From contig LVVQ01000001.1 of NCBI GenBank assembly GCA_006954405.1, positions 557,161-621,160 on the forward strand: a stretch of DNA of 64,000 nt, given 5' to 3'. The stretch comes from Candidatus Methanarcanum hacksteinii. GTDB lineage: Archaea > Thermoplasmatota > Thermoplasmata > Methanomassiliicoccales > Methanomethylophilaceae. The notes under the pieces were generated by a model. It saw nothing but the letters and a program-made list of their open reading frames with translations, searched no databases and was not told the DNA's origin. Positions 18,735 to 43,951 of the stretch are shown piece after piece. The translations under genes were made by a program, and so were the position numbers. How positions within the stretch are numbered: the stretch's first letter is position 1; each line of letters opens with the position of its first letter.

Positions 18735-18810
18735 GGGCCGGGACCGAGATTTGAACCCGAGTCAAGGGATCCACAATCCCCTAGGATAACCAAGCTACCC
18801 TATCCCGGCC
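18735..18810 (-). tRNA. tRNA-His (anticodon GTG), with an encoded G-1
   Basis: Hand-folded. Acceptor GCCGGGA/TCCCGGC with an extra 5' G and discriminator C. Anticodon stem GGGGA/TCCCT with loop TTGTGGA. T-loop TTCAAATC. No encoded CCA. Confidence 0.8.
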
Positions 18811-23086: not shown

Positions 23087-23725
23087 ATGAGCGCAGAAAT
23101 GGATGAACTCATCGACATTGTCGTAAAGGGTAAGATCAAAGAAGGAAAGGACGCAACACAGAGATGCCTCGATGCAGGACACGATGCAAAGGACATCATC
23201 TTCAACGGACTTTCAAAAGCAATGTCGATCGTCGGAGACAAGTACGCAGCAAAGCAGTACTTCCTTCCCCAGGTTCTTCTCTCGGCAAACACACTCTACA
23301 TGGGTCTCAACCTTGTTCTCCCTATGCTCACAGGAGCAGGCGGAGAGACAAAAGGTAAGGTCGTTCTTGCAGTCGTCGAGGGAGATGTCCACGACATTGG
23401 AAAGAACATCGTGAAAGCCATGCTTACCGGTCTCGGACTCACAATCTACGACTTGGGTAAGGATGTCCCGATCAAAGACATCGTCGAGAAGGCAAAGACA
23501 GAGGGAGCACAGATCATTGCAGAGTCCACACTCATGACACCTACACTCGCAGGTATGAAAGAGTGCGAGAAGATGCTCGCAGAGGAAGGACTCAAAGGAA
23601 AGATCAAGACAATGATCGGTGGTGGAGCAACCTCGAAAGAGTTCGCAGACCAGATTGGAGCAGACGGCTGGTCCTACGACGCAGTCGAGGCTTCACACGT
23701 TGCATCAGCATTCCTTGGGCTGTAA
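23087..23725 (+). CDS. Methyltransferase cognate corrinoid protein (B12-binding, MtaC/MtmC/MtbC-like)
   Basis: DVHDIGKN (DxHxxG) B12-binding motif, an N-terminal cap helix domain, and a GGAGG ribosome-binding site. Confidence 0.8.
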   Translation: MSAEMDELIDIVVKGKIKEGKDATQRCLDAGHDAKDIIFNGLSKAMSIVGDKYAAKQYFLPQVLLSANTLYMGLNLVLPMLTGAGGETKGKVVLAVVEGDVHDIGKNIVKAMLTGLGLTIYDLGKDVPIKDIVEKAKTEGAQIIAESTLMTPTLAGMKECEKMLAEEGLKGKIKTMIGGGATSKEFADQIGADGWSYDAVEASHVASAFLGL

Positions 23726-23765
23726 ACACGTAGAAGCAAATTCATACTTTTTCCCTCAACTTTTT

Positions 23766-23813
23766 CCCTCATGGGGGGATGTCCTGCCCCCCTTGAGGTT
23801 TTTCACATATTCT
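23766..23813 (+). terminator. Hairpin plus T-tract after the corrinoid protein gene
   Basis: CCCTCATGGGGGG / CCCCCCTTGAGGG 12-bp stem followed by TTTTT. Confidence 0.5.
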
Positions 23814-23899
23814 TCATCATTCCCTTTCTTCATGGAACGTTATACGGTATGTTCTGTGGTACTGCTCACTATTATACGGTATGCGTCGATACGTAATCT

Positions 23900-26110
23900 A
23901 TGAAACAGTCGGAATTCGATCAATGGGTCCAGGATTGGATCAAAAGAGAGAAGGAAGCAGGCAGGAAATGCTTCGAAGTTAAGAAATCCGGTAACAATTA
24001 CTACGTCTATTTCCAGTCGACAAGATATAATGCCGAGACGAAGAAGAGAGAGAAAGTATCCGGATATCTGGGCAAATTGGTCGAAGGAGAGGGACTGATC
24101 GAACCCGACACATACTCTGAGGATGATGAGAAGTCATCTGTTGCAAGGTATGGTCTCGGAATCGACACCGGAGGTACGTTCACGGATGCGGTCATCGTCG
24201 ACCTTGACGATTATTCCGTCGTGGTCAAGAAGAAATCGCCCACGACGCATCACGATCTGTCGATAGGATTGTACAATGCAGTGGATGCGGTCTTCAGATC
24301 TACGGATATCAGACCATCGGACATATCGCTCGTAGGAATATCCACTACATTGGCCACGAATTCAATCCTGGAAGGCAGTGGCGGAGAGGTAGGACTCATC
24401 CTCATAGGATGGAATCCGATGGAACCTGTCAATTTCGGTGAGAAGAAGCAGGTGATCATCAAGGGCGGTTGCGATAGCAAGGGCAGACAGATAGCCTCCA
24501 TGAGTAAGGATGAGGTCATCGCAGCATTGGACAGCATGAAGGGAGAGGTGGATGCGATCGCTATCTCGGGATTGTTCGCCAGTATGAATCCGTCACAGGA
24601 GAAGAAGGTGAAGGAATTGGCAGCATCCTATACAGGGCTTCCAACCGTTGCAGGACATGAGCTCTCTGCCGTTCTCGGTATCGATACAAGGGCAGAGACG
24701 GCTGTGTTGAATGCTAAACTGATCCCTGTCGTCAGTAAGTTCTTCGATGATGTGGAGGCGACATTCAGGAAGAAGGGCATAGAAGCACCGATAATGGCAT
24801 ACAAGGGAGACGGTTCCGTCATGACATTGGAACAGGCAAGGTTGTATCCTGTCGAGACCATACTTTCCGGACCCGCAGCCAGTTCCATGGGCGGAAAGAT
24901 ACTTTCAGGCCTCGAGGACTGTGTGATAGTGGATATCGGAGGCACATCCACAGATATCGCGATAATGGATTCTGGATTCCCTCAGATCCAATTCAACGGT
25001 GCATCGGTTGGAAAATGGAGGACCCGTGTGAAGGCTGTCGATATGTACACGGTCGCATTGGGCGGGGATTCGAGGATAAGAGTGGATGGACACAGCATCA
25101 CGATAGGTCCTGAGAGGGTACAACCATTATGCAGATTGGCCGAGAAGCACCCTGATGTGGTCGGCAAGATCATGCACTCCAACGTCTACGACTACTACGA
25201 GGCGGTCGATGATTATAACCTTCAGGTACTCACCGAGAAGGAACAGAGGGTGTACGACTCGACAATCGGAAAAGGACCTCTTTCGAACATGGAAGTGAAG
25301 AATGAGGTGGAAGGCCTCTGGATGATCGATGATGAATTATCCTCATTGGTCACGAAGGGTGCGATGATCCTGTCATCACTCACGCCTACGGATATAATGG
25401 TCTACGACGGTTCATTTAAATTGGGATCGAAGGACGGAGCGAGAGCAGGTGTCCATGCGGTGGGCGAGAAGCTCGGTATGACCGAGAGGCAAGCATCACG
25501 CATAGTCTTCGATGAGGTGAAGGAGAAGATCGCAGAGGCGGTCATGAGCAAGATGCTCGACGATCAGATGCTGGAATGGAGGGACAGAGGTTCAGAGCTC
25601 CTGCTGAGAAGGATGTTGACATTGCATCACGGCGATACCGCGATGAATATGAAACCAAGCTTCAGCATACCTGTCATCGGAGTGGGAGCACCATCTAAAT
25701 ACATGATGTCCGACCTCAGCGAGAGATTGGGTGCCGAGGTGGTCTTCCCCGATAACAACGATGTCGGTAATGCAGTAGGTGCTGTGTGCAGTAAGATAAG
25801 CGAATCGCTGTCAGGGAACGTGATCCCTACGCCCGACTACAAATTCTTGACGACAGTCCCGTTCATAGGCTCATCATACCATGTCCACTTGGATACGGCG
25901 ATATCATCCGCCAAACGCAGTCTGGAGTCATATCTCGAGAACAAGCTGAAGGCGATGGGTGCTAGGAATGTTATGACATCGTCCAAGATAAAGACATATA
26001 TGGCTTCTGAAGGAGGCATAGGGGATTACACCGATGAGGGATTATCGGGTACTGTGAACTATGTTGAGATAATATCAAGAGCGATAGGAGATCCACCTGA
26101 AAGGGATTGA
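23900..26110 (+). CDS. Hydantoinase/oxoprolinase (HyuA) family ASKHA ATPase with a unique ~90-aa N-terminal extension
   Basis: GLGIDTGGTFTDAVIVD hydantoinase_A N-terminal signature and a second DIGGTSTD ATPase motif; 736 aa. Confidence 0.7.
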   Translation: MKQSEFDQWVQDWIKREKEAGRKCFEVKKSGNNYYVYFQSTRYNAETKKREKVSGYLGKLVEGEGLIEPDTYSEDDEKSSVARYGLGIDTGGTFTDAVIVDLDDYSVVVKKKSPTTHHDLSIGLYNAVDAVFRSTDIRPSDISLVGISTTLATNSILEGSGGEVGLILIGWNPMEPVNFGEKKQVIIKGGCDSKGRQIASMSKDEVIAALDSMKGEVDAIAISGLFASMNPSQEKKVKELAASYTGLPTVAGHELSAVLGIDTRAETAVLNAKLIPVVSKFFDDVEATFRKKGIEAPIMAYKGDGSVMTLEQARLYPVETILSGPAASSMGGKILSGLEDCVIVDIGGTSTDIAIMDSGFPQIQFNGASVGKWRTRVKAVDMYTVALGGDSRIRVDGHSITIGPERVQPLCRLAEKHPDVVGKIMHSNVYDYYEAVDDYNLQVLTEKEQRVYDSTIGKGPLSNMEVKNEVEGLWMIDDELSSLVTKGAMILSSLTPTDIMVYDGSFKLGSKDGARAGVHAVGEKLGMTERQASRIVFDEVKEKIAEAVMSKMLDDQMLEWRDRGSELLLRRMLTLHHGDTAMNMKPSFSIPVIGVGAPSKYMMSDLSERLGAEVVFPDNNDVGNAVGAVCSKISESLSGNVIPTPDYKFLTTVPFIGSSYHVHLDTAISSAKRSLESYLENKLKAMGARNVMTSSKIKTYMASEGGIGDYTDEGLSGTVNYVEIISRAIGDPPERD

Positions 26111-26204
26111 GTCGCACGTTTCAAACAATTTCCGCTAAACACTTTTACCCCTCCCTTTCCTTTTTATAACTGTAATCATATCCTCCCGATAGAGGAGACT
26201 TATC

Positions 26205-27236
26205 ATGGCAATGACACCAAGAGAGAGAGTACTCGCAGCAATGAAACAGGAGAAGCTGGACAGACCCCCAGTCGCAGTCTTCACACAGTCAGCAACCATC
26301 GACCAGATGGATGCATTAAACATCTACTGGCCCGAAGCACACTCAGATGCAAAGATGATGTGCGAGCTCGGAGCAGCACAGGCAACCGTCTTCGGATTCG
26401 AAGCAGTCAGGTCCTCATTCTGTCTCACAGCAGAAGCAGAGGCACTCGGATGCAAAGTGGATCCTGGAAAGAAAGACAGGACACCTATGCTCAAAGCACA
26501 CCCCTTCAAATTCGACCCCATGTCCGGTGAATATGACGAGCCTAACCTCATGTCCCCTGAGGAGTTCCTCAAGACAGGAAGGCCCGCAGTCATTCTCGAG
26601 GCAACAAAACTCATGAAAGAGAAATACGGAAAGGACTACGCAGTCATCGCAGGTAACACTGGACCTTTCACACTCGCAGGTCACCTCGTTTCAACAGAGA
26701 ACCTCGTTTTCGGAATCATGATGGAGCCCGACAAGGTCAAAGAGTGGGTAGATGCAGTCAACCCCATCGTTAAAGCATACTGCCAGGCACTTTCAGACGC
26801 AGGAGCAGACATCATCCAGATGTCAGAGCCTTCAGCATCAACAGACCTTCTTTCACCCGACATGTTCACAGAGTATGCAGGATCATACGTCAAGGCATCA
26901 CTCGCAGCAACAAAGGGAGCAGACACAGTTCTTCACATCTGTGGAGACACAGCACCTATCCTCGACCACATGATCGAGACAGGCGTAACAGGTCTCTCAA
27001 TCGAGGAGAAAGTCGACTCCGCAGAGGCAGTCAAGATCGTCGGTGGACGTGCAGCACTCGTCGGAAACGTCGGTGTCGTCTCACCCTTGCTCCAGGGAAC
27101 ACCTGAGGACTGTGCAGCAGCAGGAAAGAGGATCGCAGAGGCAGGATTCAACGTAATCTCACCTGGATGCGGACTTTCAGCTCTTATCCCCGGTGCAAAC
27201 CTCAAAGCACTCGTCGACTCTGTCAAATCACTCTGA
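26205..27236 (+). CDS. Methylcobamide:CoM methyltransferase (URO-D family, MtaA/MtbA-like)
   Basis: 343 aa URO-D-like protein (MAMTPRERVLAAMKQEKLDRPPVAVF...) with conserved His and Cys near the C-terminus. Confidence 0.75.
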   Translation: MAMTPRERVLAAMKQEKLDRPPVAVFTQSATIDQMDALNIYWPEAHSDAKMMCELGAAQATVFGFEAVRSSFCLTAEAEALGCKVDPGKKDRTPMLKAHPFKFDPMSGEYDEPNLMSPEEFLKTGRPAVILEATKLMKEKYGKDYAVIAGNTGPFTLAGHLVSTENLVFGIMMEPDKVKEWVDAVNPIVKAYCQALSDAGADIIQMSEPSASTDLLSPDMFTEYAGSYVKASLAATKGADTVLHICGDTAPILDHMIETGVTGLSIEEKVDSAEAVKIVGGRAALVGNVGVVSPLLQGTPEDCAAAGKRIAEAGFNVISPGCGLSALIPGANLKALVDSVKSL

Positions 27237-27360
27237 TTGCAGAATCACAAACGAATTAATCAAGGGGGCATCAGCCCCCACTTCTACATATACTTCGATA
27301 CGTTTTCGTTGCAAGGCCATTTTATACTCAACATTCCAATGCACTGGAAGAGGATTTACT

Positions 27361-29001
27361 ATGGCATACGGAATAGCACTCGATCTCGGTACGAGCGGGT
27401 TCAGATCCCACCTTGTCGATCTTGACAAAGGTGCCAAGATTATTGATACGGCGATAACGGTCAGACACCCGCTTCCGGGTGCGAACATAATGGATCATAT
27501 GCACTTCTGGATGACTTCAGGAAGGGCGATCACGCATAACATCATCGCGCAGACGGTGTACGATCTCATAAGCCTCTATGGAAAGGAGAAACTCTCTGAG
27601 GTGAAGAAGATATCAGTCTGCGGTAATCCCATCCAGTTGTCATTGTTCGAGGACATCGAGATAAGGGATTTGGCATTCGCTGGTGAGAACAAGATCAAGA
27701 ACCTCGGTGTGACCCCTCCATTAAGGAAGGCACACATAACCACTGCTGGTGATATCGGGCTGTTAGGCATCAATCCCGAGGTGGAGGTGCTCATGCCCCC
27801 TGCGATAAGGCACGAGATCGGTGCTGATGCATTGGCCATGATAATAAAATCCGGTATGCTTGACAAGAAAGAGGTCTGCATGGTCACCGATTATGGTACG
27901 AATGCAGAGATGGGACTCTACCTGGACGGTGAATTGTATTCAGGTTCCGCTGCTGCCGGTCCAGCGATGGAAGGTCAATCCATTGAACAGGGTGTCCTCG
28001 CATCACCGCGTGCGATCTCGGATGTCAATATCGCAGATGACGGTACATGGGAGAACGTCGTACTTGACGATCATCTGATCCCTGTGACGACCGCTAAGGT
28101 GGATCCTGTGACCGGAAATACAGTCAGGATCCTGGACTACAAGGCGAAAGGGATCACAGGAACAGGTACCGTATCATGCATATCTGAAGGTCTCAGATCG
28201 GGCGTGATCACACTTCCCGGAATAAAGACCCCAGATAACAAGATCCATCTCGTGGACGGTGTAACGATATCCGCCAACGATGTACACGAAGCAGGGAAGG
28301 CCATGGGTGCAATCCGTGCAGGTCACAGGACTCTGATGTATGAGGTAGGTCTCTCCGATGCTGATGTGAAGACTATGTACATGGCTGGTGCTTCAGGAAC
28401 ATATGTTGATCCTGTAAAAGCACAGTATTGCGGAATGATACCTCGCGTATTGGATGAGGTGTATCAGCTCGGTAACACATCATTGATGATGGCTCACGAT
28501 CTGCTCAAATCCGATGGTGCTCTCGATATGATGCAGGATGTTGCGAATTCGATCTCTGCGAACCACATAATGTTCGCAGGGAATCAGAAGTTCGAAGACA
28601 TGTACGTCCTCGAGCTCGCATATTGGGATGAGGGTATGCCATACGACATGTACAACGAATTGATGGTAGCATCTGGATTCCCGCCGCTCCCTGAGATCGT
28701 ACATCCGAAGATATGCAAGAGGATCGTGAAATCGGACATACCTGAGGTCGGTGCAGGAATACACACTTTGGATCCTGTCGGTATGATCATGACAGGTATA
28801 TTCGACGGATGCACCGGATGCAGGAAATGTCAGCGCGGATGCCCTGAGAAGGCATTGACCGTGACCGATACGCCCGACGGAGCGCACATGATAAACGTAC
28901 GTTCCGACCTCTGTCTCGGTACCGCATGTAAGGCATGTGAATTCAATTGCCCAGAGAAGGTCTATTCTTTCACAGATCTCAAAGTGCAATACAAACTCTG
29001 A
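27361..29001 (+). CDS. ramA: Corrinoid reductive activation protein RamA (ASKHA domain plus C-terminal 2x[4Fe-4S] ferredoxin)
   Basis: MAYGIALDLGTSGFRSHLVDL N-terminus and C-terminal CTGCRKCQRGCP...CKACEFNCP. Start moved from the track's 27193 to the ATG after a TTTTATAC box. Confidence 0.8.
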   Translation: MAYGIALDLGTSGFRSHLVDLDKGAKIIDTAITVRHPLPGANIMDHMHFWMTSGRAITHNIIAQTVYDLISLYGKEKLSEVKKISVCGNPIQLSLFEDIEIRDLAFAGENKIKNLGVTPPLRKAHITTAGDIGLLGINPEVEVLMPPAIRHEIGADALAMIIKSGMLDKKEVCMVTDYGTNAEMGLYLDGELYSGSAAAGPAMEGQSIEQGVLASPRAISDVNIADDGTWENVVLDDHLIPVTTAKVDPVTGNTVRILDYKAKGITGTGTVSCISEGLRSGVITLPGIKTPDNKIHLVDGVTISANDVHEAGKAMGAIRAGHRTLMYEVGLSDADVKTMYMAGASGTYVDPVKAQYCGMIPRVLDEVYQLGNTSLMMAHDLLKSDGALDMMQDVANSISANHIMFAGNQKFEDMYVLELAYWDEGMPYDMYNELMVASGFPPLPEIVHPKICKRIVKSDIPEVGAGIHTLDPVGMIMTGIFDGCTGCRKCQRGCPEKALTVTDTPDGAHMINVRSDLCLGTACKACEFNCPEKVYSFTDLKVQYKL

Positions 29002-29072
29002 TTCAGATGGGGGCCACACCCCTATTCTCTTTCTTAGATACATTTTATATGTAGTATTAACATCCTTAAGGC

Positions 29073-29771
29073 ATGTCGGACAACAGCGTATTCGCAGAGA
29101 AGTTCAAGACGATTCTCAAGCTCAGACACGAGCCTGTGGCTGTAAAATTGGTAAAGAAGGATGAGGAGTATCCAGCAGGTTATGACGCACCTTCCGAGCA
29201 GATGACTCACTGTCAAGCCGTGATGGGAGCGAAGAATGGAAATTCATACAAGATGCCTGCAGCTATGCAGTCATGCAACGTCGGTGCATCCACTTTGGGA
29301 ATGATCCCGAAGCCTGAGAAGGTCATCAGTGGCGAGTTCCATGCGAATATAGGTATACACGAGTCGCCTGATGCGGCCAAAGCGATGATCGCCGCTGCCG
29401 TTGACGTTCCCTTCGAGACACAGGGCGAGGTCGTATGCCCACTGAAGGATGCGAATTTCATACCTGATGTTGTAGTCTTCGTCGACATACCCGAGAGGAT
29501 CTATTGGTTCGAGGCATTCCTCACACGTAAGGTCGGAGGGCGCGTAACATACACCACAGCACCGTTCCAATGCGCATGTGAGGATGTCACTGCGATACCC
29601 ATCGTATCAGGCAAGCCGAACATCTCGATCGGTTGTTTCGGTTGCAGGAAGAGGACGGATATGAAGGCTGACGAGATGGCTATCGGTGTTCCCTACAGCT
29701 TGATCGCAGAGATGGTATCCGATCTCGACATCTACAAGGACGGCGTCTTCCTCAAAGCAAAGAGGGACTGA
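29073..29771 (+). CDS. DUF169-family protein
   Basis: 232 aa with conserved Cys pattern (HCQAV, CNVG, CFGC). Confidence 0.5.
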   Translation: MSDNSVFAEKFKTILKLRHEPVAVKLVKKDEEYPAGYDAPSEQMTHCQAVMGAKNGNSYKMPAAMQSCNVGASTLGMIPKPEKVISGEFHANIGIHESPDAAKAMIAAAVDVPFETQGEVVCPLKDANFIPDVVVFVDIPERIYWFEAFLTRKVGGRVTYTTAPFQCACEDVTAIPIVSGKPNISIGCFGCRKRTDMKADEMAIGVPYSLIAEMVSDLDIYKDGVFLKAKRD

Positions 29772-29889: not shown

Positions 29890-30369
29890 ATGGCAGAGCT
29901 GATCGACAGGAAAGATGTTGAGATCCTGAAACGGTTGAAGGTGGATTCTAGAACCCCTATGGGTAGCATAGGGAACAAATTGAACATATCCAAGGCAACC
30001 GTGAGCCGTCGTGTGGCAAGGATGGAGGATGAGAACATCATCCGCAAATATTCCATGGATGTGGACCTTACCAGTATGGGCATCATGAAATCATTGGTGA
30101 TGATACAGGTCGTAGGTACCCCCACGGCAGTGATCATAGATCAGCTCAGGGATTATGAGGAGATCGGTGGCATCTACAAGACATTCGGTGATCACAATAT
30201 CATATGTGAGATATACACGAAGAATGTGGATGAGATATACGAGATGATCCAATCCAAATTGTTGAAGATGCCAAGCGTCAGGAACGTGGAGGTAGATGTC
30301 CTCATAGGGGAGGAGACTCTCAATGAGAATGCAGACCTCAAACTCTATGAGAAAGGATTGAAGGAGTGA
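29890..30369 (+). CDS. Lrp/AsnC-family transcriptional regulator
   Basis: HTH (ISKATVSRRVARMEDENII) followed by a RAM domain. Confidence 0.8.
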   Translation: MAELIDRKDVEILKRLKVDSRTPMGSIGNKLNISKATVSRRVARMEDENIIRKYSMDVDLTSMGIMKSLVMIQVVGTPTAVIIDQLRDYEEIGGIYKTFGDHNIICEIYTKNVDEIYEMIQSKLLKMPSVRNVEVDVLIGEETLNENADLKLYEKGLKE

Positions 30370-30373
30370 CATC

Positions 30374-31597
30374 ATGGCTGGGATCATACTCAATCGTTGT
30401 CCGAAGGTGTCTGCAGATACAGGGATAAGGGTCGTTCCGCCAGAAGAGACGCTCAAGAGAGTGATCCCCCTCTTGGATAAGGCAGGGATGGAGCCGCTAG
30501 AGGATATCACCGATAAGGACAACATAGGCATTCCAGTCTATTCCGTGTACAGGAAGAAGACTGCGAAGGGAACGTTCGGTAATTACAATGGTAAAGGCGC
30601 CACACCCGAACAGGCGATGGCATCAGCCGCGATGGAAGCCATCGAAAGATACAGTGCTGAATTACATGATGACGATGAGATAGTACTTGGTACGATACAA
30701 CAGGTAAGGGACAACGGTCCGATGATAGAACCGGATGATCTGATCCTTCCTGCGCGTGTTATGTACAATCTCGAAGCGGCAGATATTGCATGGACAACAG
30801 GATATGACCTCATACAAGGCCAAGAGGTATGGGTCCCGGCATGTGCAGTGTACTATCCATACTATCCCGATGGGGATCTGCAATTGTTCAGATTCCACAC
30901 GAACGGCATAGCATCAGGGAATACCATCGAAGAAGCGATACTGCATGGTATGTTTGAAGTCATAGAGAGGGATGCATGGTCGATAGCGGAAGCATTCGAC
31001 AGGACGAATGCCGACATAGTGATAGATGATGAGGATTCCGTGCCTGGAAAACTCCTCAAACAGTTCAGAGATAATGGAGTGGAGATACACCTCAAGGATC
31101 TGACCAGTGATCTTGGCATACCTACGATCGGAGCATCATCCGATGATGTTTCCACGAAGGATCCCGAGCTTTTGAACATAGGCGTAGGGACACATCTCGA
31201 TCCTGTCATCGCTGCAACCAGAGCATTGACAGAGGTAGCACAGAGCAGGACCACTCACAAACATGGATTGAAGGTCAATGCGAATCTTGTCAAAGTGACC
31301 AAAGAGATGGGCTATGAGAGGATCAAGGCTGTGAACAGACTCTGGTATTCCGACAACGACAAGAAGATAAGATTGTCGGAGATGCAGAATCTCTCAACAC
31401 CCTATGTGAGGGATGATATCGAAGTGGTACTTGGAAGCCTGGTGGAGCATGGATTCGAACGTGCAGTGGTAGCGGACCTTACAAGAGATGATGTGAACAT
31501 ACCTACAGTAAGGATGATCATTCCCGGAATGGAGGTATCCACGATGGATTCGGAACGCGAAGGCCCAAGACTCTGGGGAAGATGGCCAAAACGGTGA
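30374..31597 (+). CDS. ycaO: YcaO-domain protein (candidate McrA thioamidation enzyme)
   Basis: EAIERYSA and EVIERDAWS YcaO ATP-binding motifs; immediately upstream of mcrB. Confidence 0.8.
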   Translation: MAGIILNRCPKVSADTGIRVVPPEETLKRVIPLLDKAGMEPLEDITDKDNIGIPVYSVYRKKTAKGTFGNYNGKGATPEQAMASAAMEAIERYSAELHDDDEIVLGTIQQVRDNGPMIEPDDLILPARVMYNLEAADIAWTTGYDLIQGQEVWVPACAVYYPYYPDGDLQLFRFHTNGIASGNTIEEAILHGMFEVIERDAWSIAEAFDRTNADIVIDDEDSVPGKLLKQFRDNGVEIHLKDLTSDLGIPTIGASSDDVSTKDPELLNIGVGTHLDPVIAATRALTEVAQSRTTHKHGLKVNANLVKVTKEMGYERIKAVNRLWYSDNDKKIRLSEMQNLSTPYVRDDIEVVLGSLVEHGFERAVVADLTRDDVNIPTVRMIIPGMEVSTMDSEREGPRLWGRWPKR

Positions 31598-31709
31598 AAG
31601 AACGAGTAATAGGTTCAATAAAAAACAACCATTAAATATCAAAAAGCAGGCGGTTTTTGTCGATTCAAACTTCATTTATAAATGGCCAAAAAATGGTCTT
31701 TTTTATCTT

Positions 31710-31726
31710 AACAATCGATAATTGTT
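31710..31726. promoter_or_regulatory. Perfect 17-nt palindrome AACAATCGATAATTGTT upstream of the mcr TATA box
   Basis: Self-complementary sequence centred about 26 nt upstream of the TATA box at 31741. Confidence 0.35.
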
Positions 31727-31740
31727 AGAAATGCTTTACT

Positions 31741-31748
31741 TTATATGC
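31741..31748 (+). promoter_or_regulatory. mcr operon TATA box (TTATATGC) with an A-rich BRE-like flank
   Basis: The position implies a transcript start near 31770 and a 5'UTR of about 60 nt ending in GGAGGT, 5 nt before the mcrB ATG. Confidence 0.45.
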
Positions 31749-31829
31749 TAAAATGGCATACGGAAGAACTACAAGGGGAGGCAAAAAGGTTAGCCCTTTT
31801 GCTGATTTATGAATAAACGGAGGTATGAA

Positions 31830-33164
31830 ATGCCAAAATACAATGACGTAATAGATCTGTATGACGACAGAGGAAAGCGTATCGCTAAACAGATTCCTCT
31901 GGAGGCAATCAGTCCGTTGCGCAACAATGCAATCAAGAGAATTGCAGCAATGACCGAGAGGACGATCGCAGTCAACCTCGCCGGAATCGAGAAAGCTCTC
32001 AAGACCGGTTCAATGGGTGGAGACGGTGCAATCATCAAGGGAAAAGAAATTGACATCCCCCTCGTGAAGAATGCAGACAAGATTGCAAAAGCAGTAAAAG
32101 AAATGGTCCAGGTAGAAGAGGGCGACGATACAATCGTCAACGTGAAAGCTGACGGAAAGAGTCTCGTCGTTGTCGTACCTGAGGCAAGGATGCGCGCAGG
32201 AATCGAGTACACAACTGGATTCACATGTGTCGCAGCAGCAACAGTACAGGCAATCATCGACGAATTCAAGATCCCGATGTACAAGGCAAACATGGTCAAG
32301 GGAGCAGTATGGGGAAGATACCCCCAGACAATGACCTTCACCGGTTCAAACGTAAAGTCAATCCTTGAGGTTCCTCAGAACAACGAAGGTGCAGGTTACG
32401 CACTCAGGAACATCATGGCAAACCACGTCGTTGCACTTGTAGGCAGGAACGCAATGCAGGGTGTTGCACTTTCAGCAATCTTCGAGCAGACAGCATCATT
32501 TGAGATGGGTGACGCAATCGGTCCGTTCGAGAGAGGACACCTCCTCGCACTCGCATATGAGGGACTTAACGCAAACAACATGCTCTACTCAATCGTCAAG
32601 AAGAACGGAAAGACCGGAACAGTCGGTACCGTTATCGAGACACTCATGGAGAGGGCAATCGAAGACGGAGTCATCAAGGTGAAAGAAACACTCCCCAGCG
32701 GATACAAGGTCTACACAACCGATGATCTCATGCTCTGGAACGCATACGCAGCAGTCGGTCAGGTCGCAGCAGTCATGGTCAACGTTGGAGCAGCAAGGGC
32801 AGCACAGGGTGTTCCCTCAACAATCCTCTACTACAACGATCTCCTTGAGCACGAGACAGGCCTGCCTTCAACAGACTACGGACGTTCAATGGGAGTTTGT
32901 GTTGGAATGTCATTCTTCTCACACTCGATCTACGGTGGAGGAGGACCTGGACTGTTCCACGGAAACCACGTTGTTACAAAGCACTCTAAGGGAGTTCTGA
33001 TCCCCGCTGTCACAGCAGGTAACTGTCTTGATGGTGGAACACAGACCTTCTCAGCAGAGGCAACATCAGGATTGTTCAAAGAAGTCTTCGGAGACGTTCC
33101 TGAGTTCAAGACACCGATGCAGATTGTCGCCGCGGAGGCAAAGAAAGTCGCAAAGAAGCTGTGA
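31830..33164 (+). CDS. mcrB: Methyl-coenzyme M reductase beta subunit
   Basis: [17 protein letters not shown]-terminus; about 444 aa. Confidence 0.9.
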
Positions 33165-33170
33165 TGTAAA

Positions 33171-33602
33171 ATGTCAGAGAGTACCAATAATTCAGACCCC
33201 AATTATGCCGGAGTACCTCTTCCTGAGGTATGGATTCAAAGTCAGCGTCTGCTTGGAGCAGATAGTACAGAGAAAGTGTTGAAAGCATTGGAGGGTGTGG
33301 AGAAGATCAGGCAGATCAACCTCAAGGGCGAAAGTCTCCCCGCCACCATCAACAGTGGCCCTAACAAAGGCTTGCCCAACAATCACACCGAACGCAGGAT
33401 GATCAATTTCTGCGGAAAGGATGTTGAACTCAAACATCTGGTAGGTGATTTCTACATTGAGCTTTCCGTCAACAATGAGGATGAGCTGAATGAGAAAGTG
33501 AAGGAGATCGAGGAAGCTGTCAAGGACACTATGCCTTTCGGTTACAGTGTTCAGGTCGGAAGGTACTCCAAGTACAGAGCATCAATGCACGATTATAGAT
33601 AA
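33171..33602 (+). CDS. mcrD: Methyl-coenzyme M reductase operon protein D
   Basis: 143 aa in the canonical position between mcrB and mcrG. Confidence 0.8.
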
Positions 33603-33613
33603 GGTGTTTAATT

Positions 33614-34387
33614 ATGGCATATAAGAGACAATTCTACCCTGGTGAGTCCATTCCTGCAAAGAACAGGAGAAGATACATGGACCCCAAACAGAACCTTAAG
33701 AAACTGAGAGACATCGCAATGGATGATGTCGTCAGGATCATGGGACACAGGAACCCTGGAGAGGAATACAAGTCGATCCACCCCCCGATCGAGGAGGGAA
33801 AGGAGCCCGACTGTCCTATCAGGGCACTCGTTAAACCGATCGAGGGAGCAAAGCACGGAGACCGTGTAAGGTACATCCAGTTCACGGATTCAGTCTACTT
33901 CGCACCCATCTCGCCCTACCAGAGGGCATGGATGTACCTCTCCAGGTACAGAGGTATCGATACAGGTACACTGTCCGGAAGGCAGATCATTGAGATGCGT
34001 GAGAGGGATCTCGAGAAGATCGCAAAAGAAATGATCGACAACGAGACATTCGACCCTGCACTCACTGGAATCAGGGGTGCAACAGTTCACGGACACGCAT
34101 GCCGTCTCGATGAGCACGGACTCATGTTCGATGCATGGCAGAGGTATGTCTGGGACGACAAGAAGAAAGAAGTCGTATACGTCAAGGATCAGGTTGCACT
34201 TCCCCTTGACAGGAGAATCTCCGTTGGAAAGCCCGCAAAGATGGATGACCTCAAGAAGAGGACAACAATCTTCAGAGCAGACGGTGTAGACATGAGAGAC
34301 GACAAAGAGGTTACCATGTACGGTCTCAGGATCCACAAACTGAGGACACTCGGTGGTTACCAGCCCTACAAAGTTAAGGGGATCTGA
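33614..34387 (+). CDS. mcrG: Methyl-coenzyme M reductase gamma subunit
   Basis: [12 protein letters not shown]...RRRYMDP N-terminus; 257 aa. Confidence 0.9.
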
Positions 34388-34392
34388 TTAAG

Positions 34393-36051
34393 ATGGCAGC
34401 AAAAGAAAGGTTGTTTATTGACGCCTGTAAGAAGAAATTCAAAGAGGACCCAACCAGCATCGAGACAAAGTTCTACTGCTACGGCGGATGGAAACAGTCA
34501 AAGAGAAAGGTCGAGTTCGTAGAAGCAGCAAACAAGATCGCAAAGCAGCGTGGCATACCCATGATGAACCAGGACATCGGAGTTCCGCTCGGACAGAGGT
34601 CCTGGATGCCCTACCAGCTCTCACACACAGATATCTTCGTAGAGCCGGATGATCTTCACTGCATCAACAATGCTGCAATTCAGCAGGCATGGGACGACAT
34701 CAGGAGGACAGTCCTCGTTGGTCTCGACTCACCCCACAACACAATCGAGAGAAGGCTTGGAAAAGAAGTCACACCTGAGACAATCAACGAGTACCTCGAG
34801 GCAGTTAACCACACAATGCCCGGAGGAGCTGTTGTTCAGGAACACATGGCTGAGATCAACCCTGCACTCGCATACGACTCATACGTCAAGGTCTTCACCG
34901 GAAACGACGAGCTCGCAGACGAGATCGACAAGAGGTTCCTCATCGATATCAACAAGCAGTTCTCAAAGGACCACGCAAAACAGCTCAAAGCAGCAATTGG
35001 AAACACACTCATGCAGGCAGTCCGTGTCCCGACAATCGTCGGACGTGTCATGGATGGAGGTACAATCTCGAGGCACGCAGCTATGCAGATCTCGATGGCT
35101 TTCATCACATCATACAAACTCGCAGCAGGAGAGGCAGCAATTGCCGACTTCGCATACTCTGCAAAACACCAGTGTATCAACATGGGTACCATGATGCCCG
35201 CAAGGCGTGCAAGAGGACCCAACGAGCCTGGAGGAATTCCCTTCGGATTCATGGCAGATATCGCACAGTCAGACCGTGTACACCCGGACGACCCCGGACG
35301 TGCAGCTCTTGAAGCAGTCGCACTTGGTGCAATCGTCTTCGACCAGATCTACCTCGGTGGATACATGTCTGGTGGAGTAGGATTCACACAGTACGCATCA
35401 GCAGCATACACTGACAACATCCTTGAGGATTACACATACTATGCAATCGACTACATCAAGGACAAGTTCGGTGGCTTCGGAAAACTCAACCCCGAAGACT
35501 TCGACAAGCTGATCCAGCTCGGAGATGACATCAACTCATACGCACTCGAGTCCTACGAGAAGTACCCCGCAATCATGGAGGCACACTTCGGTGGATCACA
35601 GAGGGCAACAGTTGCAGCAGCAGCAACCGGTATCGCAGGTTCAATGGCTACCGGTGTCGCAGACTGCGGTCTCAACCTCTGGTACCTCTCAATGCTCCAG
35701 CACAAGGAGAGGACAGGAAGGCTCGGATTCTACGGATACGACCTTCAGGATCAGTGTGGTTCAGCCAACTCATTCGCATACAGGTCCGATGAGGGTCTGC
35801 CCATGGAATTGAGGGGTCCGAACTACCCCAACTACGCAATGAACGTCGGTCACCTCTCTGGATACACAGGTATCCCGAAGGCAGCTCACGCAGCACGCGG
35901 AGACGCATTCACAGCCAACCCATTCATCCGTATCGCATTCGCAGACCCGAGCCTTGTGTTCGACTTCGCGAACGTCACAAAAGAGATCGGACGTGGCGGA
36001 CTTCGTGAATTCAAGCCTGCAGGTGAGAGGACCGCAATCATTAAGGCATAA
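34393..36051 (+). CDS. mcrA: Methyl-coenzyme M reductase alpha subunit
   Basis: 552 aa. Contains the [12 protein letters not shown] region (the thioglycine and didehydroaspartate site) and a Gly-rich C-terminal region. Confidence 0.9.
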
Positions 36052-38234: not shown

Positions 38235-39128
38235 CTAAAATACCTTATCCTCGGAAAGTTTCGTTACGATAGGCCCTTTGGACGTCAGTATCTCCTTTAT
38301 GTCGACGACACCGATGGCTGCGATCGCTTTCCCATCGAGATCGATCGGAGTGACGACGACTTTGATACCTTTATATGGTCCACTTGTAGCGATCTTCCTT
38401 ATGCACGTTTTTGTGCGGATGACATCCTCTAGGACCTCTCCGGTGTATGCATTGTCGATGACGACCCCATTCTCGATTCTCACACCAAGGTCATCCCTGC
38501 TCTTCGCACAGACGGGAAGTCCACCTACCAATTCGTGTATCGCGAACGCGAGTGACAATATCTCTCCGGTGGATGATCTCGATGATAGGATGTCCTTGAT
38601 GCCTTTCTGTAATCTTAGGCCGCCCATCGTATTTAATGCGGCCGATATCGCACCGCATTCCGCGAGTTCGTAGGAATCTGCCGTACCGATGATCACCGCA
38701 TCATCGTTCCTTACCGCGAATATGTCTCTGATGATCTTCTCGGTATCCTTGTCCACGGGGTAATCTGAACCAGGGAAGATGAGGCGGTTGTTGGAACATA
38801 TCAATGTCGTAGCACCCTTCGCACCCGATATGATTGCCGAATCCCTCTCCTCACAACCGAATGAGATCCTTCTGGAGGCATGTCTGATCAGTACGGCACA
38901 GTTGTACATGCCGATGGTGAGGTCATGTAGGACGATCGGTTTCGCATCCAGGAATATCAATCCTCTGTATTCATCCCCTTCCTTTGTCAGTGTGATCCCA
39001 CTCTTTCCGATCTCTATGTATTTGTTCTCGAGGAGGATATTCAGGATCGTCCTTGTGCTGCCTTCTCCGATGCCAAGTACCGATGATAGTTTCTTCCTTC
39101 CGATCGGTTCATCGACATCCATGGACAT
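38235..39128 (-). CDS. Putative regulator: N-terminal winged-helix domain plus C-terminal uncharacterised domains
   Basis: GRKKLSSVLGIGEGSTRTILNILLENKYIEIGKSGITLTKEG resembles a wHTH. The track start at 39260 is TTG; the first plausible ATGs are at 39128 and 39122. Confidence 0.4.
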   Translation of the reverse strand: MSMDVDEPIGRKKLSSVLGIGEGSTRTILNILLENKYIEIGKSGITLTKEGDEYRGLIFLDAKPIVLHDLTIGMYNCAVLIRHASRRISFGCEERDSAIISGAKGATTLICSNNRLIFPGSDYPVDKDTEKIIRDIFAVRNDDAVIIGTADSYELAECGAISAALNTMGGLRLQKGIKDILSSRSSTGEILSLAFAIHELVGGLPVCAKSRDDLGVRIENGVVIDNAYTGEVLEDVIRTKTCIRKIATSGPYKGIKVVVTPIDLDGKAIAAIGVVDIKEILTSKGPIVTKLSEDKVF

Positions 39129-39329
39129 GATCGATTTCCATATGTGATAATCATTGAATTTCGGGGCAGGCCCACAGATCCTGACGTTGGATGATGGATG
39201 CATCATACATCCAGTGTTCTGTTCGGATATAACAATTCTGGTGTTGTCAGTCGTAGCCAATATTAACGCGACTAATCTTTACACACGATAAAGGCACGCT
39301 TTATCTATTTAAAAGTGATAACGCTGTTT

Positions 39330-40949
39330 ATGTCAAATGAATCTGTCGAACTTTTAAAATTAGAGAATGTCTCGAAAGTTTATGACGGAAGGACTGTGCT
39401 CAACAATGTCAGTGCTACTTTGTCAAGCGGTAAGATCCTCGGTCTTATCGGAAAGAGCGCAGCCGGAAAAAGTGTTCTGATCCATATGATCAGAGGTTCT
39501 GATGATTACGCACCCACTTCAGGCAGGGTGCTCTATCATGTCAACATATGCCCCAAGTGTGGAAACCTTGACCTTCCGTATTCAGGTCACGTATGTACGA
39601 AATGCGGTGCTGAACCGAAGACAGAATGGGTGGACTACTGGGCACTCCCCGAACGCGATCCTGTCAGACAGGAGCTCAAACAACGTATCTCCATCATGTT
39701 GCAGAGGACGTTCGCTCTCTTCGGAGACAGTACGGTGATGGAGAATATATTCGAAGCCATCGGAGATAAGGTCTCTGAGAAGGAGAAGATCGAGAAGACC
39801 ATCGAGCTCTTGGAATTCGTCAACATGACTCACAGGATAACGCACATCGCGCGTGACCTTTCAGGAGGAGAGAAACAGCGTGTCGTCATGGCAAGACAGC
39901 TTGCGAAGAACCCGTTGATATTCCTCGCTGACGAACCAACAGGTACTCTCGATCCGTATACCGCCAACATCGTTCACGAGAGGTTGGTTAAATATGTGCG
40001 CGAGAACAACATCTGTATGGTATTCGCATCACATTGGCCGGAGGCCATCAACAAGATGGCGGATGAGGCGATATGGCTCGACTCAGGTAACGTCGTCATG
40101 AGTGGCGATCCTAAGACCGTCACATCCAAATTCATGGAGGAATACCACTTCGAGAGAAGGAAGGATACCAAGCTCGGAGAGCCTCTCATCGTTCTCGAGA
40201 ACGTGAAGAAACATTACTTCTCCGTCGTGAGAGGTGTCGTGAAGGCTGTGGATGGAGTATCATTCACCATAAGGGAGAATGAGATATTCGCGATGGTCGG
40301 TATCTCTGGTGCAGGTAAGACCACGACATCCCGTATGATCGCAGGTATGACTCCAGTAACATCTGGTGTCGTCAAGATCAAGATCGGTGACGATTGGGTG
40401 GATATGAGCGAATCAGGATTCATGGGCAAGGGAAGGGCGACACCATACATCGGTGTCCTCCACCAGGAATACACATTGTATCCGTTCGATACCATCCTCA
40501 AGAACCTCACAGTCTGCATAGGGATGACGATGCCTGCCGAGATCGCCAAAGTGAAGGCGATACAGGTCCTTCAGAGCGTAGGATTCCCAAGGAAGGATAT
40601 CGAGAAGGTCCTGTACTCATACCCCGATGCATTGTCTGTCGGTGAGCAACAGAGGGTCGCATTCGCACAGGTCCTCATCAAAGAACCCCGTATCGTCATC
40701 TTGGATGAACCTACGGGAACGATGGATCCGATAACAAAGGTCACTGTCGCCAAAGCCGTGTTGAATGCGAGGGACAACCTCGGTGAAACGTTCGTCGTCG
40801 TCAGTCACGACATGGATTTCATCCTCAATTGTTGCGACCGTGCCGTTCTCTTCAAGAACGGAAAGGTCATCGAGGAAGGAAAGCCGGAAGAGATCGTCAA
40901 CGGTTTCGACAAGATAGAAAAAGAATTGGAAAATGGTGAACAACAGTGA
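39330..40949 (+). CDS. atwA: Methyl-coenzyme M reductase system component A2 (tandem ABC ATPase)
   Basis: Two Walker A sites ([16 protein letters not shown]), two LSGGE/LSVGE signatures and a CPKCG...CTKCG zinc ribbon insert in domain 1. Confidence 0.85.
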
Positions 40950-41569
40950 AACAGAAGATTGGAAGGCATCTCAGTTTCGTTGAGTGCCGTGAATCCATGG
41001 GGATGGGTCAGGGCGGAGGCTTGGCGCAGAGAGCGACCATCTCGGAAAGCGGCAGGGATGTTGTCGCCATCGCCATGGGCCCTGGAAGAAGACACATCAC
41101 GAAACCTGTGTGCGAGATCACGTACGCACTCAGGGAAGAAGGTATCGACACGTCGGTCTTGGTCCTTAACGCGGGTGCAGGTGTGCCTGCGGATGCAGAG
41201 GATGTTTCCCATGGACAGTGTATGGGATTGGATCCGATCGAAGTGGAGAGGATACAACAATTCAAAGTGGCATTGATACACCTCGGGAATGTCCGCAGCC
41301 ACATAATATGGAAAGCGAGACTCATCCTCAGGAATGTCGACATCCCTGCGATAGTGGTATGTCAATGTCCTGTGGATTTCGAGGATTTCGCCGCCATCGG
41401 TGTGAAGACGAAGGATGTCATGCCACCCGATGATAAGGTGAACACCAAAGGGACCATAATAGAGATTGTCAACGGAGTCATAAGAGGGATCTCATGCCCT
41501 CAGGATAAGTTGGATGAGATCGTTTCGAAGGTACAGAGCATGCTCCCTAAACAGGAGGAGTCGAGATGA
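40946..41569 (+). CDS. mcrC: Methyl-coenzyme M reductase protein C
   Basis: [18 protein letters not shown]...[15 protein letters not shown] matches the McrC consensus. The GTG start overlaps the atwA stop (GTGA). Confidence 0.85.
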
Positions 41570-43083: not shown

Positions 43084-43502
43084 GTGAAGAGAGAGAAACA
43101 AGACTTCTCATGATATCGCCCACATCCAATATAACACCGGATCAGCTCTCGCGTACGATCCACTCCATGGGCGAGAGGATCACAGTGAAGGAGACCTGCT
43201 ACGGATGTCTCATCGAAGGGCCTAGTGAGGTCGTGAGGCGTGTACGTGATAGGGCTAGAGAGATGGATCGTAACGCCATATTCTCGAAGATCAGAGCATA
43301 TCCCGCGAGCGACCCAAGAAGATGCCGTGCACAGCATGGTACCAGGCCTGGTTATTCCCAATTGGAGATGGAATGGAAGGCCCTTACCAACATAGAGGCT
43401 GGACTCGATGCATTGGATAGAGGAGAGGAGATCAAGGAACCCACTCCTAAGAAACAACTTTCAGTAATGGAATTTAAGAAAATATGTGAGGCGAACCAAT
43501 GA
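43080..43502 (+). CDS. mmp6: Methanogenesis marker protein 6 (probable)
   Basis: 140 aa with translationally coupled overlaps on both sides. Assigned by size and synteny only. Confidence 0.4.
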   Translation: MSEERETRLLMISPTSNITPDQLSRTIHSMGERITVKETCYGCLIEGPSEVVRRVRDRAREMDRNAIFSKIRAYPASDPRRCRAQHGTRPGYSQLEMEWKALTNIEAGLDALDRGEEIKEPTPKKQLSVMEFKKICEANQ

Positions 43503-43951
43503 AGGTGTTCATCGACCCCCCAAACAGTATGATTTTATTCGATTTGATAGAGAGGTTCGGACATGAGCCCCTCAGTACAATGGCAGCACTCCAAGAGAGG
43601 GTGGACAATATAGAGATAGATATGCCTCCGATGAATGTGACATTGGATGACGTCATCAAAGGACTCAAATATGCAGGTATAGAGGTACCGTCAGGTATCA
43701 GAGGAAGACTTGCGATATGGGGCCCCCTAATCGAGGAAGCGGATGCCGCTGTCGTCATGGAAGGGGCACCGTTCGCCTTCGGATGTGTCGGCTGTGAACG
43801 TTCCAACCTCATGGTCAAGTATCTGTTGCAGAGGCGCGGGATACCCGTGGTCACTGTCAATTATCCCGAGAATGAGGAAGAAGGTAAACTCGTGGTTGCC
43901 AAGATAAAGGAATTCTTGGACAAGCTCAATGATAAGAGGGAGGTGGATTGA
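43499..43951 (+). CDS. mmp5: Methanogenesis marker protein 5 (probable)
   Basis: 150 aa; [10 protein letters not shown] motif; coupled overlaps. Assigned by size and synteny only. Confidence 0.4.

Follow-up and report, generated by a model that had tools for sequence, protein, structure and literature searches.

A stand-alone HyuA-family ATPase in the mcr-adjacent corrinoid methyl-transfer cluster of Methanomassiliicoccales

Introduction

Methanomassiliicoccales are major methyl-reducing methanogens of human and livestock guts, and all of their methane passes through corrinoid proteins. In a 64,000-nucleotide stretch of "Candidatus Methanarcanum hacksteinii" (contig LVVQ01000001.1, positions 557,161 to 621,160; referred to here as the window), a run of five genes encodes a corrinoid protein, a 736-amino-acid (aa) HyuA-family ATPase of the ASKHA superfamily, a methylcobamide:coenzyme M (CoM) methyltransferase of the MtaA/MtbA type (MT2), the reductive activase RamA, and a DUF169 protein. 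An earlier, sequence-only reading of this DNA placed the ATPase in the position of the substrate-specific methyltransferase (MT1), which the run lacks. What, then, does a hydantoinase-type ATPase do in a methyl-transfer cluster?

We find that the protein has a full-length HyuA fold and intact ATP motifs, that neither HyuB nor an MT1 accompanies it, that its gene is syntenic across the order, that its wider family is linked to corrinoid proteins beside different types of methyltransferase, and that some family members are fused to DUF1638. The explanation that we favor, with about even confidence, is that the cluster is a conserved, mcr-adjacent block for common methyl transfer and corrinoid maintenance in which the ATPase acts on the corrinoid protein.

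Results

A methyl-transfer cluster without MT1 or HyuB

All five open reading frames (ORFs) of the claimed run are found on the forward strand in the ORF list of the window, at the positions given by the sequence-only reading. Pfam and NCBIfam profile searches of window ORFs, using the family cut-offs, returned the families that it had named; only the start of RamA had to be revised. The cluster and its downstream context are as follows.

23087..23725 (+), orphan corrinoid protein, 212 aa, of the His-on cobamide-binding type (Pfam B12-binding_2 and B12-binding)
23900..26110 (+), 736-aa stand-alone HyuA-family ASKHA ATPase (PF05378 and PF01968)
23900..24139 (+), N-terminal ~80-aa domain of the ATPase, helix plus beta-sheet, only in the 734-757-aa form
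26205..27236 (+), MtaA/MtbA-type methylcobamide:CoM methyltransferase (MT2), URO-D fold (TIGR01463, NF004889)
27361..29001 (+), RamA, ATP-dependent reductive activase of corrinoid proteins (TIGR04270)
29073..29771 (+), DUF169 protein with invariant Cys (PF02596, 190 bits)
29890..36051 (+), Lrp/AsnC regulator, YcaO (McrA glycine thioamidation), mcrB, mcrD, mcrG, and mcrA

The claimed absence of an MT1 also held: among the scanned window ORFs of at least 300 aa, none, in the cluster, beside it, or elsewhere in the 64 kb, matched MtaB, MtmB, MtbB, or MttB models from Pfam or NCBIfam. Likewise, a TAG read-through scan of the 64 kb gave no split ORF pair resembling a pyrrolysine methyltransferase, as the same reading had stated of amber-split ORFs. 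HyuB (Hydantoinase_B, PF02538) had no match among the scanned window ORFs of at least 300 aa, and DUF1638 was not found in the window by tblastn. Four ORFs (RtcB, OTCase, McrB, and McrA) lay outside the MT1 and HyuB scans and were named by synteny.

The 736-aa protein is a HyuA-type ATPase over its full length

Two Pfam domains place the protein in the HyuA family: Hydant_A_N at residues 86-243 (112.2 bits; cut-off, 25.2) and Hydantoinase_A, of which only the first half is matched, at residues 264-407 (110.4 bits; cut-off, 22.9). A profile built from 25 homologues and compared with the PDB matched HyuA-type chains only, namely, those of N-methylhydantoinase, caprolactamase alpha, and the HyuA-type subunits of acetone and acetophenone carboxylases. 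Equivalog models of the named HyuA enzymes (caprolactamase alpha and acetophenone carboxylase alpha/gamma) were not reached, with scores of 107.8, 77.8, and 62.5 bits against cut-offs of 1000, 1500, and 1250. The sequence-only reading had proposed a structure prediction of the protein; an AlphaFold2 model (predicted local distance difference test score, 73.5) shows a full-length HyuA fold and not a methyltransferase fold. Its top Foldseek matches (9h03_A, 5l9w_B, 5svc_B, and 6yra_A) extend over 706-761 aligned columns with E values of 1e-22 to 1e-28, at 16-20% identity to solved HyuA members.

Because the model aligns over ~700-760 columns, the C-terminal 330 residues are a normal, divergent HyuA C-terminal half. 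Three other views of the protein were rejected. A separate MT1-like domain in these 330 residues conflicts with the structural alignment of the whole chain to HyuA subunits. A description as HyuA plus a C terminus of another kind fails in the same way, since the HyuA alignment spans the chain and only the first ~80 residues are extra. Finally, the protein as a whole is no MT1 of the MtaB, MtmB, MtbB, or MttB kind, as it matches none of these families and has the ASKHA/HyuA fold, not a TIM barrel.

Both ASKHA phosphate motifs, DTGGTFTD (residues 89-96) and DIGGTSTD (residues 345-352), have core residues that do not vary, either among 25 sequences at 60% identity or above or among 11 that reach down to 39%. 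Judged from these motifs, the 736-aa protein is likely an active ATPase.

The cluster is syntenic across the order

With few exceptions, the 120 best homologues of the ATPase measure 734-757 aa and reach 59% identity or more, and those with a named source come from Methanomassiliicoccales. The nearest of them is 99% identical, and its 90%-identity cluster includes TQS78037.1 of "Candidatus Methanarcanum hacksteinii" (Methanomethylophilaceae). Gene order across the order, a check that had been proposed along with the original claim, is conserved: in loci whose ATPase is 61-71% identical (labelled Methanomethylophilaceae, Methanomassiliicoccaceae, and "Thermoplasmatales"), the succession corrinoid protein, HyuA-like ATPase, MtaA, RamA, DUF169, Lrp, YcaO, and mcrBDGA is intact. 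The sequence-only reading would have been undone by a co-transcribed MT1 next to the cluster or by an ATPase gene inserted in this genome alone; no MT1 is adjacent, and the ATPase gene is no one-genome insertion.

More distant relatives, at 41-48% identity, are ~660 aa long and do not have the N-terminal domain. Among their loci (numbered L here, as are all loci of relatives), L008 retains the order corrinoid, HyuA-like, URO-D, and L009-L011 retain RamA too. The latter three loci have a helix-turn-helix gene inserted ahead of the ATPase gene, and ~1 kb past RamA they carry MtrA/MtrH genes instead of the DUF169-Lrp-YcaO-mcr block. In L009 (9246-9989) and L010 (9172-9912), the inserted gene encodes a 246-aa protein with a C-terminal winged-helix domain and lies between the corrinoid and HyuA-like genes. 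The same two loci have a second URO-D gene on the opposite strand and a metallo-beta-lactamase-fold gene after RamA, followed by MtrH/MtrA.

The N-terminal domain of ~80 residues is strongly conserved among 25 sequences of 734-757 aa, the form found in the mcr-adjacent clusters, and is absent from homologues at or below 48% identity. No Pfam family matched it even at E values up to 10, and a database search with the domain alone returned only fragments of the same protein. Two possible origins were dismissed: the helix-turn-helix protein of L009/L010 has no similarity to it, and a resemblance to transposase N termini could not be substantiated.

The wider family is linked to corrinoid proteins rather than to one MT1

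An exhaustive search of 50%-identity cluster representatives showed the 736-aa form to be one tight cluster inside a large family of solo HyuA-like proteins, which are otherwise ~650-700 aa long and 32-48% identical to it over nearly the full length. Loci of this family were probed for corrinoid proteins, URO-D, MttB, RACo, DUF1638, DUF169, and CobW-type GTPases, with Pfam spot-checks. Among the matches listed, 18 of the 82 nonorthologous family loci, in archaea and bacteria, have a corrinoid protein within 10 kb. The methyltransferase is of the URO-D type at 13 of the 18 (including L051, L060, and L066), of the MttB type at 4, all in Anaerolineae (L022, L033, L057, and L063), and of neither type at 1; RACo, DUF1638, or a CobW-type GTPase is also present at several. 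Since the linkage spans URO-D and MttB types, the constant partner is the corrinoid protein and not one MT1. On a neighbor-joining tree, the corrinoid-linked loci are scattered through most clades. HyuB was not found among the relatives' neighbors that were Pfam scanned or had precomputed Pfam annotation.

Arrangements differ between lineages. Paralogue clusters of Methanomassiliicoccales follow the pattern corrinoid, URO-D, (corrinoid), CobW, HyuA, (HyuA), (DUF1638), with optional genes in parentheses. Loci of Coriobacteriia and Eubacteriales read URO-D, corrinoid, URO-D, HyuA, RACo, DUF1638, and a Desulfobacterales locus reads URO-D, corrinoid, RACo, another gene, HyuA. In metagenome-assembled genomes (MAGs) of Methanomassiliicoccales, HyuA-like paralogues each stand beside a corrinoid/URO-D pair of their own (L018, L020, L026, L031, L035, L048, L071, and L083), a distribution that mirrors that of the RamA paralogues.

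Several side observations concern these loci. Two HyuA-like genes can share one corrinoid cluster, either adjacent (L018, L020, and L035) or a few kilobases apart (L022 and L036). The paired copies are close paralogues in L036 and belong to different clades in L018, L020, L022, and L035, where they recall the alpha/gamma HyuA-type pair of acetophenone carboxylase. A CobW/G3E-type GTPase recurs in L018, L019, L020, L031, L035, L048, L056, L083, and L084, mostly from Methanomassiliicoccales, and in L019 no other component of these clusters was detected beside the HyuA-like gene; the GTPase is a possible further maturation factor for these systems. L084 is a contig labelled Bifidobacteriaceae with the typical order corrinoid, URO-D, CobW, HyuA. 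On the tree, its HyuA-like protein has a Methanomethylophilaceae sequence as its sister, inside a clade made up mainly of Methanomassiliicoccales, and the contig is probably a mis-binned archaeal one.

Fusion to DUF1638 points toward corrinoid maintenance

Of the 149 nearest 50%-cluster representatives, 22 consist of an N-terminal DUF1638 fused to the HyuA-like body, as detected with Pfam and with a hidden Markov model, and none is a corrinoid-HyuA fusion. DUF1638 also occurs as a neighboring gene in L031, L033, L051, L056, L060, and L083, after RACo in L051 and L060. Apart from the genes of its own parts, the three-part B12-dependent methionine synthase of Phaeobacter requires two more, those for DUF1638 and for a RamA-like protein, and the phyletic distributions of the two nearly coincide (Price et al. 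2018, PMC5764234). Both are induced in Ruegeria during growth on glycine betaine (PMC12478193). Through the fusions, the HyuA-like family is thereby connected with the reactivation or maintenance of corrinoids, in systems whose methyl donors are entirely unlike those of methanogens.

A side observation was made in one fusion locus, L098, where a CbiA/CobQ-type gene (cobyrinic/cobyric acid amidotransferase-like; 3310-4872) lies directly downstream of the DUF1638-HyuA gene; it is the only B12-related neighbor in the five fusion loci that were inspected.

The remaining components of the cluster

The corrinoid protein carries the DxHxxG (GDVHDIGKN), SxL, and GG motifs and is 63-83% identical in syntenic loci. 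Against TIGR02370, the methylamine-type model, it scores 182.1 bits, under the cut-off of 215.3, which leaves it outside that family. Its best named models are MtgC and MtbC; MtgC, MtbC, and MtaC are all far under their cut-offs.

The MT2 gene passes NF004889 (332 bits; cut-off, 244) and TIGR01463 (mtaA_cmuA; 331.7 bits; cut-off, 235.4) and receives no equivalog assignment, as MtaA_Meth (327 bits against 400) and MtbA (250.5 bits against 600) are both missed. Identity to its counterparts is 73-80% in the syntenic loci next to mcr and 56-68% in the remoter loci L008-L011.

RamA matches TIGR04270 with 694.1 bits (cut-off, 500), RACo_C_ter with 216.6 bits, and Raco_middle, and it has a 2x[4Fe-4S] ferredoxin domain (Fer4_7 at residues 540-589). 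The ORF as listed (27193-29001) has a GTG start at 27193 and so overlaps the MtaA gene; judged by the family match and by the motif MAYGIALDLGTSG, the real start is ATG 27361.

DUF169 has four invariant and two nearly invariant Cys residues, and DUF1638 has three invariant Cys and one invariant His. DUF169 was rejected as a distant DUF1638 homologue (hhalign probability, 0.5%). Sequence searches gave no solved relatives for either family, and structure comparison of DUF169 gave no informative fold neighbor.

Much of this cluster has been catalogued before. Borrel et al. (2014; PMC4153887, Table S10 and Fig. S6) described a corrinoid gene, "mtxC1," of uncertain methyl compound near mcr, together with "mta/mtbA1" and several "MAP" (RamA-type) genes that they treated as general components, and placed mtaBC, mtmBC, mtbBC, mttBC, and mtsAB elsewhere in the three genomes studied. 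Their methyltransferase was left as "mta/mtbA" with no finer assignment; for its equivalent in M. luminyensis (WP_019176765), Kröninger et al. (2017; PMC5688252) used the name mtbA. A hydantoinase is mentioned in neither paper. The corrinoid, MT2, and RamA genes of the window are the counterparts of "mtxC1," "mta/mtbA1," and "MAP"; the ATPase and DUF169 genes, which lie between and after them, are not mentioned by Borrel et al. In M. luminyensis, one accession number separates mtxC1 (WP_019176763) from mta/mtbA1 (WP_019176765), and this numbering is consistent with an ATPase gene at the intermediate accession. All components except the ATPase and DUF169 had thus been catalogued, and three parts of the cluster are still unexplained: these two and the orphan corrinoid protein. 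MT2 and RamA look like shared components, with MT1 pairs encoded elsewhere, and the missing MT1 is therefore no anomaly.

Intergenic elements

The gaps between cluster genes measure 71-174 bp. Two elements lie in the gap between the corrinoid and ATPase genes.

23767..23803 (+), hairpin followed by TTTTT, possible terminator or attenuator (RNA folding against shuffles)
23840..23883 (+), repeated promoter- or operator-like element with two TTATACGGTATG copies (conservation in relatives)

The hairpin is GC rich (CCTCATGGGGGG...CCCCCCTTGAGG), folds with -24.4 kcal/mol (z = -3.17; 0 of 200 shuffles fold as well), and is not conserved in sequence among relatives. It may be a terminator or attenuator that parts the corrinoid gene from the ATPase gene. 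The exact 12-mer TTATACGGTATG occurs twice, at 23840-23851 and 23872-23883, which is 17-48 nt upstream of the ATPase start, and has no further match with 0-1 mismatch in the window. An 11-mer of it stands upstream of the orthologous gene in L003 (2733-2743), L004, L005-L007 (9958-9968), and L014 (9954-9964), and a copy with one mismatch does so in L001; the copies of L001, L005, and L014 are each accompanied by the reverse complement, TACCGTATAAC. The element is kept although the surrounding intergenic regions are otherwise unalignable. By this pattern, it looks like a conserved promoter or operator, for which the downstream Lrp gene is a candidate regulator, and its presence suggests a separate, regulated promoter for the ATPase gene. 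Scans for bacterial-type promoters and terminators did no better than on shuffled sequence; such models are ill suited to archaea.

Other features of the window

The YcaO gene downstream of the cluster matches TIGR03266 with 420 bits, and the mcr genes were named by synteny with the Pfam-annotated L001, L003, and L005 and by 83-90% tblastn identity. On its upstream side, the cluster is preceded by genes for an SbcD-like phosphoesterase, an RNase H-like protein, and RecJ. A second, methanogenesis-associated block at 38235-46682 holds a DUF4443/DUF2111 protein that has a DNA-binding domain at its N terminus, a double ABC ATPase that is probably component A2-like, a 505-aa ORF with no Pfam match, a BcrAD/BadFG-type ATPase, and McrC. 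The archaeal RNase P RNA lies at 49566-49859 (-; 205.6 bits), and tRNA genes lie at 18736-18809 (-) and 62301-62374 (+). The ORF at 58100-60310, which also encodes 736 aa, was dismissed as a paralogue of the ATPase: it is an H+-translocating pyrophosphatase without similarity to it, and the equal length is coincidental.

Discussion

A proposed corrinoid-directed ATPase in a common block

In the reading that we favor, the MtaA/MtbA-type enzyme would be the shared MT2 and RamA the shared reductive activase, serving substrate-specific MT1/corrinoid pairs encoded elsewhere. The ASKHA ATPase would have lost, or never had, a HyuB catalytic partner, and would most likely spend ATP on the corrinoid protein itself and not on a methyl substrate. 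Candidate actions are cobamide loading, cobamide exchange, or a remodelling of the corrinoid protein for reactivation by RamA. The ATPase would thus work alongside RamA, possibly with DUF169 here and with DUF1638 in other lineages. Both the target and the nature of the ATP-driven step are what we infer from the company that the gene keeps. Among the roles suggested by the sequence-only reading, the one that best matches the evidence is corrinoid repair by a second ATPase besides RamA. The central proposal of that reading, that the ATPase fills the MT1 slot of a self-contained methyl-donor module, is not supported: the protein has the HyuA fold, MT2 and RamA look like shared components, and relatives' clusters have their own MT1s, of two families.

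Several points weigh against a corrinoid-directed role. Characterized HyuA enzymes phosphorylate small substrates, not proteins or cofactors. Published in vitro reconstitutions of methyl transfer from methylamines and glycine betaine are reported to run on RamA or on chemical reductants, with no ATPase of this kind present; neither catalysis nor reductive activation would therefore strictly depend on it. None of the five DUF1638-HyuA fusion loci inspected lies in a corrinoid methyltransferase cluster, and on the neighbor-joining tree, a large, mainly alphaproteobacterial clade has no corrinoid gene within 10 kb in the loci sampled. The genome scan itself, with at least 80 loci and one full-length orthologue among the matches listed, is a sample and not a census. 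Order-wide synteny could partly reflect inheritance and not function. Given the intergenic gaps, the hairpin with its T run, and the conserved motif, co-transcription of the five genes is not established.

Other explanations keep some of the same evidence. The URO-D enzyme could perform both half-reactions in a self-contained system like MtsAB, which needs no MT1 and in which the ATPase would be an auxiliary or an unrelated neighbor. A corrinoid protein with a single URO-D methyltransferase is indeed the MtsB/MtsA arrangement for methylthiols (cited in PMC4153887), URO-D enzymes act as MT1 in other systems, and Methanomassiliicoccales have paralogous clusters of corrinoid, URO-D, and HyuA-like genes as well. 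We nevertheless consider this unlikely, because separate mtsA/mtsB genes exist in M. luminyensis and "Ca. M. alvus," where the present URO-D gene is classed as mta/mtbA1, and because "Ca. M. intestinalis" has no mtsAB and yet has mtxC1 and mta/mtbA1 in Table S10 (PMC4153887). In addition, the M. luminyensis equivalent is treated as mtbA (PMC5688252), the URO-D gene scores best against MtaA and MtbA models, and the ATPase is left unexplained. Slightly less probable is an ATP-dependent methyl-donor pathway, in which some methyl donor, such as a compound with a poor leaving group, is first phosphorylated by the ATPase or activated by it in another way, and the MtaA-like enzyme moves the methyl group to the orphan corrinoid protein and then to CoM. 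Such a role would suit a family whose characterized members are all ATP-dependent activators of small carbonyl or lactam substrates, and the nearest named models of this ATPase are caprolactamase alpha and the acetophenone carboxylase subunits; it would also suit a corrinoid protein without an assigned substrate ("mtxC1," PMC4153887) in a window without MT1. A substrate-specific activator would not be expected, however, to have relatives shared among clusters with complete MT1/corrinoid sets of two unrelated MT1 families, and the cluster is universal in the order whatever the substrate range. There is also no HyuB-type second subunit to process a phosphorylated intermediate, and the fusion partner DUF1638 is tied to the B12 reactivation of an enzyme with unrelated methyl donors, methionine synthase.

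The ATPase might instead, together with the Cys-rich DUF169 here or DUF1638 elsewhere, deliver electrons, feeding or energizing the Co(II)-to-Co(I) reduction of the RamA type in the manner of archerase/RACo-type metallo-ATPases. Uphill electron transfer driven by ATP hydrolysis is an established activity of some ASKHA ATPases (RACo; HgdC/BcrAD type; PMC7317905), and RACo and HgdC are among the distant fold matches of the model. The positions of DUF169 after RamA and of DUF1638 after RACo (L051 and L060), the invariant Cys residues of both, and the DUF1638-HyuA fusions would fit as well. We judge this about equally improbable, since the HyuA-like protein itself shows no sign of an Fe-S center or another redox motif, RamA already has ATPase and ferredoxin domains of its own, and DUF169 and DUF1638 are not homologous and have no assigned cofactor, DUF169 being without an informative fold neighbor. 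Least probable by far is a coincidental neighbor, that is, a gene of lactam, oxoproline, or hydantoin turnover kept in place by inherited gene order. The HyuA family assignment at the Pfam level would allow it, and many family members are not beside corrinoid genes, as in the alphaproteobacterial clade and in Methanosarcinaceae (L046, L061, and L069). Yet corrinoid associations have arisen independently and in different arrangements in Chloroflexota, Coriobacteriia, Eubacteriales, Desulfobacterales, and several Methanomassiliicoccales paralogue clusters; the DUF1638 fusions, the co-induction with a glycine-betaine methyltransferase cluster, and the lack of the HyuB partner that classical hydrolyzing or carboxylating HyuA systems have also speak against it.

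Significance

Returning to the corrinoid-directed role, a broader form of it can be put forward only tentatively, as possible and well short of even confidence. Solo HyuA-like ATPases may be a widespread, unrecognized third accessory class of corrinoid methyltransferase systems in archaea and bacteria, with DUF1638 as partner or, in Methanomassiliicoccales, with DUF169 and an orphan corrinoid protein. They would carry out ATP-driven cobamide loading, exchange, or rescue, distinct from RamA/RACo and acting with it, and would be a core, mcr-linked requirement for methane formation in gut methylotrophs.

The ATPase stands at the same position beside MT2, RamA, and mcr in every syntenic locus examined (MAGs labelled with two families), which marks a gap in the accepted parts list of the pathway. 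Members of the same family turn up again in bacterial clusters of the glycine-betaine and URO-D-type demethylase kinds. Fusion to DUF1638, which is genetically required for a B12-dependent methionine synthase but unexplained, is also frequent in the family. The function of the ATPase could explain how corrinoid methyltransferases are loaded and kept active in vivo, a step bypassed in vitro by chemical reductants, and the ATPase could offer a target for methane mitigation. If the gene is dispensable, the finding shrinks to a conserved neighbor without an assigned role.

Comparison with known systems

The literature searched contains no paper that joins a hydantoinase with Methanomassiliicoccales, in agreement with the claim that the ATPase is undescribed in methanogenic methyltransferase systems, and only one (PMC9768040) that notes a HyuA-type gene in a corrinoid methyltransferase cluster, without interpretation. 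There, Holland et al. (2022) found a HyuA-family protein strongly co-induced in the glycine-betaine methyltransferase cluster of strain DCMF and drew "HydA" in a comparative figure of the glycine-betaine clusters of other anaerobes, with no function proposed. That protein, of the N-methylhydantoinase A family, lies among an MttB-type MT1, MT2, corrinoid proteins, and transporters. The likeness to the window is at the family level; the host is a bacterium, and an MT1 is present.

Compared with the set of DUF1638 and RamA-like protein that accompanies the split methionine synthase and MtgBCD, the window has DUF169, which is not homologous, in place of DUF1638 after RamA, and Price et al. (2018) report no HyuA-like gene among the required genes. 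RamA and RACo are, like the 736-aa protein, ASKHA-superfamily ATPases in corrinoid methyltransferase clusters, and RACo structures (4c1n and 3zyy) are among its distant fold matches. Unlike them, the protein has no iron-sulfur, RACo_C_ter, or Raco_middle domain and no TIGR04270 match; it co-occurs with RamA/RACo and does not replace it, as a genuine RamA lies two genes downstream.

The HyuA-type subunits of ATP-dependent hydantoinase, 5-oxoprolinase, caprolactamase, and the acetone and acetophenone carboxylases share its full-length fold, its Pfam domains, and its ASKHA motifs. Unlike these classical HyuA/HyuB enzymes, the ATPase of the window has no HyuB in the 64 kb or beside the relatives examined, has an extra 80-aa N terminus, and stands in a context of corrinoid methyl transfer, not of lactam or ketone metabolism.

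A further parallel is offered by GlmL/MutL of glutamate and methylaspartate mutase. The glutamate mutase operon has the order mutS-mutL-mutE, that is, a B12-binding protein, a stand-alone ASKHA ATPase, and a catalytic subunit, which is the order seen here, and adenosylcobalamin enzymes are maintained by ASKHA-type reactivases such as DdrA and EutA. The Pfam MutL profile (PF13941) matches the ATPase weakly, with 34.9 bits over residues 87-155 and profile positions 3-65 of 450, and the NCBIfam GlmL model (NF040745) gives 29.5 bits against a cut-off of 475, which places the protein outside that family. The resemblance to GlmL/MutL and to the adenosylcobalamin-enzyme reactivases, which extends to the proposed task of cofactor maintenance, would thus be one of logic and gene order, by analogy and not by membership.

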